DNA of 64,000 bases from Anaerolineae bacterium (lineage in GTDB: Bacteria > Chloroflexota > Anaerolineae > Epilineales > JAHCIE01): positions 13,766 through 77,765 of the forward strand of contig JAHCIP010000001.1 in assembly GCA_026129165.1 (NCBI GenBank). Direction: 5' to 3'. How positions within the stretch are numbered: the first letter of the stretch is position 1; every line of letters begins with the position of its first letter. The position numbers and the translations under genes were made by a program. The notes below the pieces were generated by a model, which saw only the letters and a list, made by a program, of their open reading frames with translations, did not search any database and was not told the DNA's origin. Below, piece after piece: positions 3,822 to 44,065 of this stretch.

Positions 3822-4634
3822 ATGACGCAGTATGTGGTCGAGACCCACGACCTGACCAAGATTTATGGCAACGGTCATGAGGTGCGGGCGCTGGATGGCG
3901 TCAACCTGACGGTGGCGGCGGGCGAACTGGTGGCGATTGTTGGGCCGTCGGGGTCTGGCAAGTCCACCCTGCTGAACATGATTGGCGCGTTGGACCGTCC
4001 CACCAGCGGCGAAGTGGTCATTGACGGCACGCCGCTGTCCAAGGTGCGTAACCTGGACCAGTTCCGCAGCCAGACCATCGGCTTCGTGTTCCAGACGCAC
4101 AACCTGATTCCAACACTGACGGGGCAGGAAAATGTCGAAGTGCCCATGTATGAGACCACTTTGAGTGGGTCGAAGCGCCACGGCCGAGCGCAAGAGCTTC
4201 TCAGACTGGTTGGGCTGGGAGAACGCATGCACTACCTGCCCGCGCTTATGTCCGGCGGCGAGCGCCAACGCGTGGCCATCGCCCGCGCCCTCGCCAACCG
4301 CCCCAGCATCATCCTGGCCGACGAGCTAACGGGGATGCTCGACTCGCGCACGACGCAGGACATTCTCGCCCTGCTGACCCAACTCAACGCCCAGCAGGGA
4401 ACCACGATGATCATCGTGACACATAACCATGAAGTGGCGCGGGCGACGCGGCGGGTGATTACCTTCCGCGACGGGAAGGTGCAGAGCGATGTGGCGATTC
4501 GCAGCGCCTACGAGAGCGACCTGCTGGACTGGAAGAGTTCCACGCTCGGTCAGGCGATCCTGCAGGGCGACGGCGTGCCGGAGGGACTAAAGGCTATCGT
4601 CCCCCAGCTAAGGGAGGCGTTTGACAAGGTTTAG
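3822..4634 (+). CDS. ABC transporter ATP-binding protein (MacB/LolD-type ATPase)
   Basis: Walker A GPSGSGKST, Q-loop, ABC signature LSGGERQRVAIARAL, Walker B IILADELTGMLD, H-loop VTHN. 270 aa. Confidence 0.9.
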   Translation: MTQYVVETHDLTKIYGNGHEVRALDGVNLTVAAGELVAIVGPSGSGKSTLLNMIGALDRPTSGEVVIDGTPLSKVRNLDQFRSQTIGFVFQTHNLIPTLTGQENVEVPMYETTLSGSKRHGRAQELLRLVGLGERMHYLPALMSGGERQRVAIARALANRPSIILADELTGMLDSRTTQDILALLTQLNAQQGTTMIIVTHNHEVARATRRVITFRDGKVQSDVAIRSAYESDLLDWKSSTLGQAILQGDGVPEGLKAIVPQLREAFDKV

Positions 4635-4683
4635 CGCCGTAGGGGGTATTAGTTCAAACCAGTAAGAACCATAGCGTTTATAC

Positions 4684-5538
4684 CTAGCGTCTAACAGTGA
4701 ATGCGCCTGATAGAACTAGGTTATTGGGATTCTCAAGATAGAATTCCACCCTATAAACTCCTGTTGGAAAGGGGAGTCCACAGTTAGTATTGGTCTTTGG
4801 GCACCAATTGACCCAATTAAACTCGAAATCGATACAATCGAAGCTGCTTTGCCCACAGATTTTGGGTCCGGTGTCCGAGCTCGAGTTGTCTGGATTTAAA
4901 ACGCCATCCTTATACCACTTTTGGAAAAAAGGCATTCCCCTGTATACATTCTCAACTTCCCATGTATAATAGATTTTGGTTACTACACCTCTAAACTCAC
5001 TCGTAGATATTCTACACTGCCCAGCCTGCAAGTCAAAGTCGCTATCTGCACAGAAAACAAGGTTGTAAAAACGCGGTGTACTTACTCGGGACGGTGGAAC
5101 ATTTGTTAGTGTGGCCAGCGGGATAACCACTACCTTTATCGTTGGCTGTTGGTTAGCTGCTGGCTGAGAGGTAGGGACAGTTATGTTTGTCTCTGCCGAA
5201 GAAGGAGGAGATAGACGACGGAACATTAGCCATCCCATTACGATGATTGTCATTAAGACAACAGAGGAGAGAAGCCCTAGCGCGACTAATTTTGATTGAG
5301 ACGTTCCTTTGATAAGTAGATCTTCTGTTCTAATATCGGGCCGATTTCGTTTAAGCCACGTCACTAACTCGCTGAGTCGTTCGCGACGATACAAATCGAA
5401 GATTAGCTGTCGAACTAATTCGCCTTTGTCTAGTCCTTCATAATCAATGCCTAGATCAGCTGCCGCGTCGCGGAGTTCATCGAAGTTTAGTCTTTGTCTT
5501 AGGACCTCGCGAAGAGCCGATTTGTCCCAGTTTGTCAT
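4684..5538 (-). CDS. Single-pass membrane protein in an AT-rich island: N-terminal cytoplasmic helical domain resembling effector-associated domain EAD1, one TM helix, S/T/P-rich linker, C-terminal six-Cys (presumably extracellular) domain of unknown fold
   Basis: 284-aa ORF. N-terminus LREVLRQRLNFDELRDAAADLGIDYEGLDKGELVRQLIFDLYRRERLSELVTWLKRNRPDI matches my recollection of the EAD1 consensus (F..EL..L...LGIDYE.L.G......LV.Y..R..RL.EL...L...RPD). TM = LVALGLLSSVVLMTIIVMGWLMF. C-terminal domain carries 6 Cys and W/F/Y-rich motifs (FNWVNWCPKTNTNCGLPFP). Local GC is far below flanks. Confidence 0.5.
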   Translation of the reverse strand: MTNWDKSALREVLRQRLNFDELRDAAADLGIDYEGLDKGELVRQLIFDLYRRERLSELVTWLKRNRPDIRTEDLLIKGTSQSKLVALGLLSSVVLMTIIVMGWLMFRRLSPPSSAETNITVPTSQPAANQQPTIKVVVIPLATLTNVPPSRVSTPRFYNLVFCADSDFDLQAGQCRISTSEFRGVVTKIYYTWEVENVYRGMPFFQKWYKDGVLNPDNSSSDTGPKICGQSSFDCIDFEFNWVNWCPKTNTNCGLPFPTGVYRVEFYLENPNNLVLSGAFTVRR

Positions 5539-5650
5539 TGGCGGCGTCTCCTAGACCTCCCGACTCTTTCTGTAACACGATTGTTATAAATCGGCTGTCG
5601 TAAGTCTACTATCCCGGTCAGTATGTGTCAAGATTGTCTTACACTGCTGG

Positions 5651-5672
5651 CTGAAAAGACCCCCGTGGGGGT
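5651..5672 (-). terminator. Putative intrinsic terminator for the minus-strand trkA-containing operon
   Basis: Minus-strand reading: ACCCCCACGGGGGT hairpin followed by CTTTTCAG, 10 bp after the stop of the TrkA-N gene. Confidence 0.4.
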
Positions 5673-5681
5673 AGACGTTTC

Positions 5682-6083
5682 TTACATTCCCTCTATGATA
5701 AGTTTCGCCATCACCTCGGCCTGGTTGACCGCGACATCGCAGCCCATCTCCGGCGTGAACAGCCAGGCATTTTTGGGGTTATTGACGCGGGCGATGACAC
5801 GGTGGACGTTGAACTCCTGCCGCGCCAGGCTCGTCACCACCAGGTTCGTCTCGTCCGCGCCCGTGACCGCCGCGACCAGGTCGGTCCGGCGGATACCCGC
5901 CGCCTCCAGCACATCGGGGTCGGTCCCATTGCCCATCACCACGACAGCCGCCGGCAGGTCATGGCGCAGCACGGCCGCGTGGTCGCTGCGGCTCTCGATG
6001 ACTGTAATCGGGTGGCCCTCGCTCATGAGAAGGCGCGCTAACCCCTCGCCCAGCTTTCCCCCGCCCACAATGATAACGCGCAT
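5682..6083 (-). CDS. TrkA-N (KTN/RCK NAD-binding) domain protein
   Basis: 133 aa. MRVIIVGGGKLGEGLARLL Rossmann GxGxxG motif typical of TrkA-N/RCK. Confidence 0.8.
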   Translation of the reverse strand: MRVIIVGGGKLGEGLARLLMSEGHPITVIESRSDHAAVLRHDLPAAVVVMGNGTDPDVLEAAGIRRTDLVAAVTGADETNLVVTSLARQEFNVHRVIARVNNPKNAWLFTPEMGCDVAVNQAEVMAKLIIEGM

Positions 6084-6091
6084 AGGGCCTC

Positions 6092-6736
6092 CTAACCCAG
6101 CAGCTTGACCAGCCGGTTGCTAGCCGTGTTGGTGACGGCCAGATGGATCAGGTCATCGGCCTCAAAGACAGCGCCGAGGCTGGGCAGAAAGGTATGACCC
6201 CGACGGGTGATGGCGACAACATGAACCTCGCCCGGCAGGGTCAGATCGGCCACCGTGCGGCCCACCAGCGTCGGCGGCGTCTCAGTCTCGACCAGGTCCA
6301 CCTCACCGCTCCCCAGGCTGGCGACCGCGTCCAGGTGCGAGAAGCACAGTAGCTCCGCCATGCGCTGGATGCCCCAGACAGTGGTGGAAACGGTGGGCAG
6401 GCCCAGGCGGCGGTAAATGTCGGCCTTGTGCGGGTCGTAGACGCGGGCCACGACGCGGGGGACGTGAAATATCTGGCGGGCAACTCGCGCCGTGACCACG
6501 TTGACGTCGTCGCTGGCCGTGACAGCCGCCAGCCCGTCGGCGCGGCGGACCCCCGCCGCCTCCAGCGCCTCGCCGTCGAAGCCGATGCCCACGACGGTGC
6601 GCCCCTTGAACGCACTGCCCAGGCGGCTAAAGGCGTCTGGGTCCTTATCCACCACAGTGACCTCGTGGCCGGTCTCTACCAGGCGGCGGGCCAACCCACC
6701 CCCCATGCGGCCACAGCCTACGATGATGAGTCGCAT
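6092..6736 (-). CDS. trkA: TrkA-family potassium-uptake regulatory protein (RCK N + C domains)
   Basis: 214 aa. MRLIIVGCGRMGGGLARRL GxGxxG motif. C-terminal TrkA-C-like segment (VGRTVADLTLPGEVHVVAITRRG). 19-bp overlap with the upstream P-type ATPase stop. Confidence 0.8.
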   Translation of the reverse strand: MRLIIVGCGRMGGGLARRLVETGHEVTVVDKDPDAFSRLGSAFKGRTVVGIGFDGEALEAAGVRRADGLAAVTASDDVNVVTARVARQIFHVPRVVARVYDPHKADIYRRLGLPTVSTTVWGIQRMAELLCFSHLDAVASLGSGEVDLVETETPPTLVGRTVADLTLPGEVHVVAITRRGHTFLPSLGAVFEADDLIHLAVTNTASNRLVKLLG

Positions 6737-41065: not shown

Positions 41066-44065
41066 ATGTCTGATCTATCCTTCGGTCAGTGGCTCAAGCG
41101 GCGGCGGGCCGGGCTGGGGCTGACCCAGGCCGAACTGGCTGACGCGGTCGGCTACAGCCGCGAAATGATTCGCAAGCTCGAAGTGGACAGGCTGCGGCCC
41201 TCGAAGGCGCTAGCCGTGCGGCTGGCCGCAGTCCTCCAGCTCCCGCCCGAAGACCACGCCGCGTTTATCCGCTTCGCCCGCGACGAGGGCAGCGACCCGC
41301 CGCCTCCCCTGCCCACGCAGACCACCAGCGTCCCCCCACCCTCCACACTCGACGCTTCACGCTCCACCTCTGCTCCCCTCCCCCACAACCTGCCCATTCC
41401 TCCCACCCCCCTCGTCGGGCGCGAGGCAGAGACGCGACAGGTCGCCTCTCTCCTCCACCGTCCCGACGTGCGTCTCGTCACCCTCACCGGCCCCGGCGGC
41501 AGCGGCAAAACGCGCCTGGCGCTAGAAGTGGCGCATACGCTGACGAAAGACCGAGGACGGAAGACGGAAGACGAAGGGCGAAATACGAAATACGCATTAC
41601 GCACTACGGACGGCGTCTTCTTCGTCAACCTCGCGCCTATCACTGACCCCAGCCTGGTGATAGCGACGATAGCACAGGCGTTGGACGTGCGGGAGAGCGG
41701 GGGGCGTCCCCTACTGGAGAGCGTGAAGGACTACCTACGCGAGAAGGAGATGCTACTGCTGCTGGACAACTTCGAGCAGGTGGTCGAAGCGGCTCCTATC
41801 GTGGCCGACCTGCTGGCCTACGCGCCGGGTCTCAAATGTCTCGTTACCAGCCGTATCCCGCTGCACCTGCGCGGCGAGAAGGAGTTCCTCGTTGAACCGC
41901 TCCCGCTGCCAAGCCGGGATAGCCGACCGCTGACGGTAGACGGCCGCCAAGAAACGGATTACGCGGCGCGCATCACGCAATATGCCGCCGTTGCCCTGTT
42001 CATCCAGCGGGCGCAGGATGTGAAAGCCGACTTCCAGGTGACGAACGAGAACGCCCCCGCCGTGGCTGAAATCTGCCATCGGCTCGACGGCTTGCCCCTC
42101 GCCATTGAATTGGCGGCGGCGCGGGCGCGCGTCCTCACGCCGGAAGCCATGCTCCCCCGGCTCCAGCGCCGGCTGGCATTCCTGACCAGCGGCCCCGCCG
42201 ACTTACCGGCCCGTCAGCAGACGCTCCGCGCCACCATTGACTGGAGCTTTAGTCTGTTGACAGCAGGCGAGCAGGCTCTCTTTACCCGGCTGGCCGTCTT
42301 CCACGGCGGGTTCACCCTGGAAGCGGCCGAAGCGCTGTGCGGCGACGACGACGGAGGACGAAGGACGGAGGAAGAGAACTCTCGTCCGTCGTCCGTCCTC
42401 CATCTTCCGTCAGTCCTGGACGGTGTCGAATCGTTGGTCGCCCAGAGCCTGGTGCGGCGTGCCCTGCGTGGCAGCGCCGAGGCAGAAGCAGCCTCGCTGC
42501 CGTTCACCATGCTCGAAACGATCCGCGAGTATGCCCTGGACCGCTTTGCGGCCAGCCCAGAGGCTGGCATGGTCCGACAGAGACACGCCCAGTATTACCT
42601 TGGTCTGGTGGAGGAGGCGGAGCCTCAACTGATGGGGGCTGGGCTGACGGCCTGGTTGGGGCGGCTGGGCGCGGAGTGGGAGAATATCCGGGCGGCGGTG
42701 GGTTGGCTGCGAGACAGCGCCCAGCCAGAGGCCCTGCTCAGGCTCGTTGGCGCGTTACGCCGCTTCTGTGAACTTCAGGGACGCTCCAGCGAGGCGTTGG
42801 CCTGGCTGGAGGAGGGTTTGAACCAGGGCGGGGAGGTCGCGGCGGCGGTGCGGGCCAAGGCTCTCCATGTGGCGTCAAATCTGGCGCAGAACATGGGCGA
42901 CCTGGACGGCGCGGTGCGGTTGGGCGAGGCGAGTCTGGCCCTCCGCCGCGAGTTGGGCGACCAGCAGGGCATGGCGCGGACGCTCAACAACCTGGCTGTG
43001 ACGGCCTGGTCGCAGGGCAATTTCAGCCAGGCCCGCGAGTTACACGCGGCCAGCCTCGCCATCAAACGCGCGCTCAACGACCGGCTGGGCATGGCCTATT
43101 CCCTCAACAACCTGGGCCTGATTGCCACCGACCAGGACGACTACCCCACCGCGCGGGCCTTGCTAGAGGAGAGCCTGACCCTGCGGCGAGAATTGGGCGA
43201 CCAGCACGGCGTCGCCGTCTCCCTTCTCAACCTGGGCAATGTGGCCCGCCAGCAGGGTCAATTGGGGGAAGCCCGCGCCCTCTACGAGCAGAGCCTGGCG
43301 CAGTTACGCCGCCTGGGAGATCGGGCCAATGAGGCGCGGGTGCAGAGCGTGCTGGGTCTCACCCTGGCCGAGCAGGGTGACTACGCCGCCGCCTTCGCCC
43401 ATTTGCAGGCCAGTCTGGACCTGCGGCGGACGCTCGGCAATAAACGCGACATCACCGTGTCGCTTAACAATCTGGGGCAGGCCGCGCTCTATCAAGGCGA
43501 TGTGGCCTGGGCGCGGCTGGTGTTTGAGGACGCCCTGGGCCTGGCCCGCGAGGGCGGCGCGAAGATGGGGCAGGCCAACGCGCTGGTCGGGCTGGGCCAG
43601 GTGGCCCTGGCTGAGGGGCGGTGGGAAGACAGCCGGCGCTATCTGCTGGCGGGGCTGGACCTACAGCGCGAGCTGGGGGATCAGGGAGGGGTAGCGACAA
43701 CGCTGCTCGCCCTGGCGAAGCTCAATGCCCACGCTGGCGACATGGGGAACGCTCTTGCTAGGGCGCGCGAGAGCCTGGGCGAGTTGCACCGGCTGGGCCT
43801 TCAACTATTCCTGGCCGATGCCCTTGAAACCTTAGTCGGGCTGCTTGGGCGTGGCGATCCCGATGGGGCAACCCGCCTGGGCGGGGCAGCCGCCGCCTTG
43901 CGGGCGAGACTGGGGATTCCGCTGCCGCGAGGCGCACAAGGGGAGTGGGCGCGACGGCTGGACGAACTGAGGGGAGCGCTGGGGGGGAATCGTTTCGAGG
44001 CCCTGTACCAGACGGGCCACACGCTACCCCTCACTGAAGCCGTCGCGGAGGCGCTGGCGGATTGA
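41066..44065 (+). CDS. STAND-type regulator: N-terminal XRE-family HTH, NB-ARC/AAA ATPase module, C-terminal TPR array. Carries two in-frame insertions derived from a palindromic repeat family.
   Basis: 999 aa. HTH LGLTQAELADAVGYSREMIRKLE. Walker A LTGPGGSGKTRLA, Walker B LLLLDNFEQV, GLPLAIELAAA (NB-ARC GxP-like). About 12 TPR units (...LNNLA...YSLNNLG...LLNLG...). Low-complexity inserts TKDRGRKTEDEGRNTKYALRTTDG and DDDGGRRTEEENSRPSSVLHLPSVLDG. Confidence 0.8.
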   Translation: MSDLSFGQWLKRRRAGLGLTQAELADAVGYSREMIRKLEVDRLRPSKALAVRLAAVLQLPPEDHAAFIRFARDEGSDPPPPLPTQTTSVPPPSTLDASRSTSAPLPHNLPIPPTPLVGREAETRQVASLLHRPDVRLVTLTGPGGSGKTRLALEVAHTLTKDRGRKTEDEGRNTKYALRTTDGVFFVNLAPITDPSLVIATIAQALDVRESGGRPLLESVKDYLREKEMLLLLDNFEQVVEAAPIVADLLAYAPGLKCLVTSRIPLHLRGEKEFLVEPLPLPSRDSRPLTVDGRQETDYAARITQYAAVALFIQRAQDVKADFQVTNENAPAVAEICHRLDGLPLAIELAAARARVLTPEAMLPRLQRRLAFLTSGPADLPARQQTLRATIDWSFSLLTAGEQALFTRLAVFHGGFTLEAAEALCGDDDGGRRTEEENSRPSSVLHLPSVLDGVESLVAQSLVRRALRGSAEAEAASLPFTMLETIREYALDRFAASPEAGMVRQRHAQYYLGLVEEAEPQLMGAGLTAWLGRLGAEWENIRAAVGWLRDSAQPEALLRLVGALRRFCELQGRSSEALAWLEEGLNQGGEVAAAVRAKALHVASNLAQNMGDLDGAVRLGEASLALRRELGDQQGMARTLNNLAVTAWSQGNFSQARELHAASLAIKRALNDRLGMAYSLNNLGLIATDQDDYPTARALLEESLTLRRELGDQHGVAVSLLNLGNVARQQGQLGEARALYEQSLAQLRRLGDRANEARVQSVLGLTLAEQGDYAAAFAHLQASLDLRRTLGNKRDITVSLNNLGQAALYQGDVAWARLVFEDALGLAREGGAKMGQANALVGLGQVALAEGRWEDSRRYLLAGLDLQRELGDQGGVATTLLALAKLNAHAGDMGNALARARESLGELHRLGLQLFLADALETLVGLLGRGDPDGATRLGGAAAALRARLGIPLPRGAQGEWARRLDELRGALGGNRFEALYQTGHTLPLTEAVAEALAD

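Follow-up and report, generated by a model that had tools for sequence, protein, structure and literature searches.

A low-GC island in an Anaerolineae chromosome encodes a putative receptor-like membrane protein with an EAD7 domain

Effector-associated domains and the control of conflict systems

Effector-associated domains (EADs) are proposed to engage the same domain on another protein (Kaur et al., PMC7159879). In the published scheme they are fused to enzymatic effector or signaling domains, or to a core NTPase, vWA or GAP1 component, and it is usual for an EAD gene to stand alone at a distance from the core (Kaur et al., 2020, PMC7159879). EAD7 (PF19960; Kaur, Iyer, Burroughs and Aravind, eLife 2020; 2021) is probably distantly related to EAD1 and EAD6 (Kaur et al., 2020, PMC7159879), and its source papers tie such conflict systems to multicellular bacteria (PMC7159879, PMC8195603). 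Precedents for outside-in control of conflict systems through a transmembrane protein with an extracytoplasmic domain are provided by the EACC2-caspase proteins with CHASE2, the GAP1-N2 systems with extracellular domains, and the transmembrane anti-sigma factor DdvA, which controls a CBASS/CRISPR island (PMC8195603, PMC7159879, PMC11506125). Their sensors, however, are CHASE2, cadherin and anti-sigma domains, their outputs differ, and none contains EAD7 or the Ig-like family described below.

The protein considered here departs from the published EAD scheme in that its EAD7 domain is followed by a transmembrane (TM) helix and a non-enzymatic Ig-like domain that is predicted to be extracytoplasmic. 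This combination is not found in the main text of PMC7159879 or PMC8195603, and no table of EAD7 architectures appears in the supplement text of Kaur et al. (2020). The gene lies in a 64-kb stretch of a chromosome of Anaerolineae (Chloroflexota), hereafter the window, for which a preliminary description had been made from the letters of the DNA.

A foreign island in a variable slot

The gene is carried by a low-GC island of ~1.05 kb (positions 4636-5690, no strand assigned), which extends from the stop codon of an ABC ATPase gene (4634) to the end of trkA2 homology (5685). In 300-bp windows from 4651 to 5700 the GC content is 0.43-0.48, against 0.60-0.77 in both flanks, and an 80-bp scan places the drop at ~4600-4640 and the recovery at ~5690-5800. 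The island as delimited has a GC of 0.43-0.47, compared with a mean of 0.649 for the whole 64 kb, and 500-bp windows below 0.52 start at 4501-5301 only, making the island the sole low-GC stretch of the window. The three scans bear out the AT-rich island of about 1 kb that had been noticed between the ABC exporter and trkA genes. Third-position GC deviates likewise: the GC3 of the island gene is 0.43, whereas in all 50 other gene-like ORFs of the window it is 0.70-0.89.

The genes flanking the island are a HlyD-like gene, a FtsX-like permease and the ABC ATPase on the plus strand, and two trkA genes and a P-type ATPase on the minus strand. The order ABC ATPase ... trkA2-trkA1(-P-type ATPase) is kept in three relatives, L003, L022 and L023, but the genes in the slot differ in each. 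L001, the nearest relative of this locus (its permease is 91% identical), stops short of the island and therefore cannot reveal an empty site. The trkA genes had been recognized as the right-hand neighbors; what has to be corrected is that the adjacent trkA2 (5682-6083, minus strand) is truncated at the island edge. It encodes 133 aa and contains only TrkA_N by Pfam, whereas its orthologs in L022 and L023 have 219 and 223 aa and reach into TrkA_C. By tblastn, homology to the full-length TrkA2 of L022 stops at residue 133, at window position 5685, so that the gene abuts the island and marks its right-hand breakpoint. In L003, trkA2 is independently truncated at the same domain boundary and a different cargo is present, which indicates that the slot genuinely turns over.

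Because the island is the only low-GC stretch, its GC3 is 0.43 vs. at least 0.70 elsewhere, the cargo of the slot varies and trkA2 homology ends exactly at its edge, the island DNA is foreign to this chromosome. The earlier proposal of horizontal acquisition is thus upheld by a foreign composition and by a position whose cargo changes from one syntenic relative to the next. The two hallmarks of a genomic islet, atypical composition and a break in conserved synteny, are present, but there is no sign of mobility in the form of an integrase, a transposase, a tRNA target or direct repeats: the window contains no tRNA gene, no convincing terminator that might account for the insertion was found, the repeats flanking the island are short, at chance level and unconvincing, and the island holds a single gene and neither integrase nor transposase. 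Rfam gave no match over 4300-6100, and tblastn against phage and plasmid collections gave none to the island protein. Probably a short piece of foreign DNA took the place of whatever the variable slot between the ABC-exporter and trk/P-type ATPase operons held before, and this replacement would have clipped the TrkA_C end off trkA2.

Gene, protein layout and EAD7 domain

The lone gene (4684-5538, minus strand) is an intact ATG ORF of 284 aa, found as described previously, and its product aligns end to end (E 1e-23) with a relative of the same architecture, P0039. A Shine-Dalgarno-like AGGAG, read from the sequence, precedes the start codon (ATG at 5538) by 9 nt (5548-5552, minus strand). Further upstream a consensus scan finds a promoter-like TTGACA-17-TAGACT (5603-5631, minus strand; 10/12 matches), a weak candidate given that the AT-rich stretch yielded 7 such sites vs. 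1.2 expected. Downstream of the trk genes, which share the strand of the island gene, no terminator is predicted. From the intact ORF, the AGGAG, the promoter-like site and the lack of a predicted terminator, the gene looks expressible.

The order of a helical N-terminus, one TM helix, an S/T/P linker and a Cys-bearing C-terminus, also proposed earlier, is borne out. The EAD7 domain (residues 9-67; 5338-5514, minus strand) is predicted to be cytoplasmic. Residues 84-106, LVALGLLSSVVLMTIIVMGWLMF (5221-5289, minus strand), form the single TM helix (Kyte-Doolittle, 19-residue window, peak 2.49) and are the sole hydrophobic segment of the protein. A low-complexity linker follows (residues 107-153; 5080-5220, minus strand), 57% of which is S/T/P/A/N; comparable S/T/P/A-rich linkers precede the Ig-like domain in most relatives. 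The C-terminal Ig-like β-sandwich comprises residues 154-284 (4687-5079, minus strand). Both flanks of the helix carry a net charge of +1, and with charges so balanced the probable N-in/C-out topology rests on analogy with the relatives.

The N-terminus had been assigned to EAD1. It is a genuine effector-associated domain, but Pfam identifies it as EAD7 (PF19960), with 37.7 bits vs. a gathering cut-off of 32, an E-value of 1.8e-9, and residues 9-67 covering the full model (1-62 of 62). Were it EAD1 after all, the protein would pair with EAD1-bearing vWA-MoxR or GAP1 systems, and the probable distant kinship of EAD1, EAD6 and EAD7 speaks for such a reading. We consider it most improbable: a Pfam scan with an E-value limit of 10 gave, beyond EAD7, one chance match and no other EAD family, although the HMMER filters drop most matches with E above ~0.1; three relatives with the same architecture (P0039, P0008, P0014) also match EAD7; and PF19960 is carried by 21/21 matches of the profile search.

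An AlphaFold2 model of the N-terminal domain (pLDDT 87.1) has five helices within residues 6-74 and agrees with the small, all-α, non-catalytic terminal domain that characterizes the EAD7 family. Its best structural matches are mostly Death-fold domains, while SAP-like domains such as FAN1 score about equally, and the EAD7 profile has no significant match among PDB sequences. The likeness to the Death fold is at the level of fold only. The bacterial death-like domain 8ss1 from Azospirillum and the CARD of a probable serine protease, 9frr, show no detectable sequence similarity to this EAD7; both are soluble proteins according to their PDB entries, unlike the membrane receptor-like island protein. 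A broader parallel is found in the Death-fold receptor and adaptor proteins of animals (Fas/TNFR1 death domain, MyD88, CARD/DED/PYD assemblies), whose overall logic the island protein would share: a disulfide-bearing binding domain outside the cell, a single TM helix and, inside, a Death-fold adaptor acting homotypically. The island protein would, however, be oppositely oriented (N-in/C-out, type II), its EAD7 model has five helices instead of the canonical six, an Ig-like sandwich replaces the TNFR cysteine-rich repeat, and there is no relationship at the sequence level. The likeness is one of mechanism and not of family membership, and on the side of the island protein it is drawn from sequence and models.

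A rare Ig-like family with exchangeable modules

The C-terminal ~130 aa give a confident model of an Ig-like β-sandwich (pLDDT 89), in which two sheets superpose on solved Ig-like domains of the Ig-like/E-set type. Structure prediction thus answers the earlier question of whether this part is folded or disordered. Structural matches are generic Ig-like, macroglobulin and FN3 domains, with S-layer, macroglobulin and carbohydrate-binding sandwiches among the nearest folds; a BFVD search gave generic Ig-like matches only. No catalytic family appears, in keeping with the previous view that the protein lacks an enzymatic effector. The domain has no sequence match in Pfam or PDB, and at E ≤ 1 no Pfam family is matched in more than 2 of 41 members.

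The "six-Cys domain" of the preliminary description is correct in its count, since all six Cys residues (163, 175, 228, 235, 246, 253) are in the C-terminal domain, but overstates the pattern: only C163 and C175 are invariant across the family and define it, and the other four belong to a lineage-specific insert. This insert, a surface segment of ~0-45 residues between the fifth and sixth strands, is the most variable part of the Ig-like domain. C163 and C175 may form a conserved disulfide that stabilizes the fold. What sets the family apart from generic bacterial Ig-like, E-set and macroglobulin sandwiches is a motif of its own, F-C ... C ... W together with G ... F at the C-terminus, and the island protein keeps all the family-invariant residues. 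The domain defines a rare protein family missing from Pfam.

Rarity is also apparent from the searches. An exhaustive phmmer search of 1.84 billion representatives found 43 distant relatives. A word-indexed search gave nothing with the full protein and two already-known matches with the domain profile, and no close relative turned up in 241 million metagenome records, in phage and plasmid collections, or among the ~15 billion proteins for which the representatives stand. Scanning the JGI metagenomes with the island protein yielded no relative, and with a nine-sequence profile a single short locus (L049); NCBIfam gave no meaningful match.

A TM or signal anchor precedes the Ig-like domain in about three quarters of the family (44 members). 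Inspection of N-termini by eye suggested lipoboxes in P0007, P0009 and P0015 and signal peptides in P0028, P0034 and P0036. An anchor, signal or lipobox combined with the conserved Cys pair marks an extracytoplasmic family, with two exceptions: P0004, in which TIR is fused directly, and P0020, a TPR-CHAT protein, carry the Ig-like domain with neither TM helix nor signal, and so the domain is not obligatorily extracytoplasmic. Further extracytoplasmic modules in family proteins are SH3_3 (5 proteins), FGE-sulfatase (2), trypsin and M48. Assignment of the P0026 N-terminus to a Cap4-like nuclease was dropped because it had no Pfam match.

Closely related ectodomains are found behind EAD7, TIR, caspase or kinase domains, or behind nothing; most members consist of anchor, linker and domain, with no cytoplasmic module. 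The architecture of the island protein recurs in P0039, P0008 and P0014. P0008, with EAD7, and P0019, with a caspase, are 54% identical over 226 aa of ectodomain, and P0012, which lacks a cytoplasmic domain, is 91% identical over the ectodomain to P0038, which has TIR. These pairs imply a constant ectodomain to which exchangeable cytoplasmic modules are attached as outputs. The suggestion that the protein is a receptor rather than a toxin gains support from this pattern, in which EAD7, caspase or TIR is linked through a membrane helix to ectodomains that are closely related.

Search for an EAD7 partner

As the published scheme leads one to expect, the EAD7 gene is a lone gene off the core system. 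No second EAD7 was found in the 64-kb window by tblastn and a four-sequence EAD7 HMM in six frames, which recovered the gene itself only; a cognate EAD7 fused to a core component (STAND, VMAP, GAP1) is likewise absent from the window, unlike the paired arrangement of the EAD model. The window encodes no EAD-bearing NTPase. Its sole STAND protein (41066-44065) consists of HTH, AAA_16/NB-ARC and TPR without an EAD, so that Pfam, tblastn and the six-frame HMM agree with what had been reported about the surroundings. The neighbors of the gene are the ABC exporter, trkA and P-type ATPase genes, with no core NTPase of a conflict system beside it, and PADLOC gave no match.

Among relatives, the gene just upstream of P0014 (locus L040) also carries EAD7 (E 2.8e-10), and short EAD7-only proteins adjoin an AAA_22/LysM protein with a faint NACHT match and also adjoin a caspase. 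This EAD7 pairing fits the EAD principle (Kaur et al., 2020, 2021; PMC7159879, PMC8195603). Apart from the pair in L040, the neighborhoods of family members in L034-L045 contain no recurrent partner gene.

Proposed mechanism and alternative readings

The reading that we favor, at somewhat better than even likelihood, is that horizontal transfer brought in a receptor-like sensor at the cell surface, whose EAD7 domain would recruit another protein bearing a cognate EAD7. The EAD7 domain would face the cytoplasm as a small, non-catalytic, Death-fold helical bundle, followed by one TM helix, an S/T/P-rich stalk and the Ig-like β-sandwich outside the membrane. The ectodomain would bind something at the cell surface, for which the hypervariable insert with its Cys residues, located between strands five and six, is a candidate site. 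Binding or clustering may then present the EAD7 domains at the inner membrane face, where they would engage the same domain on another protein. In this manner a signal from outside could reach a module for conflict or cell death, for instance a STAND NTPase, caspase or TIR protein that carries EAD7.

Several observations run against this sensor. The charges about the TM helix are balanced, P0004 and P0020 have no anchor, and no EAD7 partner lies within 64 kb; the gene may have arrived too recently to have a partner in this host. A purely structural role, or a simple one at the surface, would also account for the lack of a cytoplasmic module in most family members.

The protein could instead be a membrane tether or an envelope-binding scaffold, with the Ig-like domain fixing it in the envelope, for example via wall polymers, and with EAD7 either concentrating a partner at the membrane or serving as the small cytoplasmic oligomerization domain of a surface protein. 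The prevalence of anchor-linker-domain members is what a tether would produce, and peptidases and SH3_3 occur in the same family proteins; bacterial SH3_3 domains are wall-binding. The S-layer, macroglobulin and carbohydrate-binding sandwiches among the nearest folds point the same way. Even so, we regard a tether as unlikely, since the exchange of EAD7, caspase, TIR and kinase on closely related ectodomains is the pattern expected of an input domain with alternative outputs, and a surface insert of ~0-45 residues as the most variable part fits diversifying recognition better than a fixed anchor. Rather unlikely, too, is that the gene is an orphan passenger, a piece of a conflict system that was transferred not long ago, lacks a cognate EAD7 partner in this genome, is functionless here and is decaying. 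Its strongly unameliorated GC3, the missing partner within 64 kb, the lack of a close relative in the very large protein, metagenome and phage/plasmid collections named above, and the damage done to trkA2 by the insertion would all be expected of such a fragment. Against decay, however, speak the ORF, which is intact over 284 codons and keeps all the family-invariant residues, and the ribosome-binding and promoter-like sites ahead of it; in the survey of Kaur et al. (2020), moreover, EAD genes usually stand apart from their core system.

Faulty assembly of a metagenome-assembled genome, in which sequences were joined into a chimera or a pile of low-GC reads was mis-placed in a high-GC contig, would explain the abrupt compositional borders and the absent mobility signature, and the closest relatives that were found are all metagenome-assembled genomes. 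We hold it to be very improbable. Both flanks are syntenic with relatives, and a false join would need to have placed 1 kb exactly between two neighbors that were themselves joined correctly. The left border, furthermore, follows directly after the intact ABC ATPase stop codon, the right border gives trkA2 a clean in-frame stop, and in L003 trkA2 is cut independently at the same domain boundary, with other cargo in the slot.

Implications

To our knowledge, nearly all bacterial immune and cell-death modules so far described sense their trigger intracellularly. If the genome has no partner, the island gene would be an ordinary orphan in a recombination hotspot. If the sensor reading is true, an extracytoplasmic domain wired via a single helix to a Death-fold adaptor, TIR or caspase would be a simple outside-in version of such modules, a prokaryotic equivalent of the logic of Fas/TNFR or Toll-like receptors. 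A bolder extension, which is doubtful, is that the protein is a bacterial counterpart of death- or Toll-type receptors: a Cys-clamped hypervariable loop would sense phage, a neighbor cell or envelope damage, clustered EAD7 would nucleate EAD7-tagged caspase, TIR or STAND effectors, and the wider family, with its EAD7, TIR, caspase and kinase modules, would constitute an unrecognized class of outside-in receptors for immunity or cell death. With only 284 aa, the island protein would offer a small and tractable case for asking whether EADs act by homotypic recruitment.

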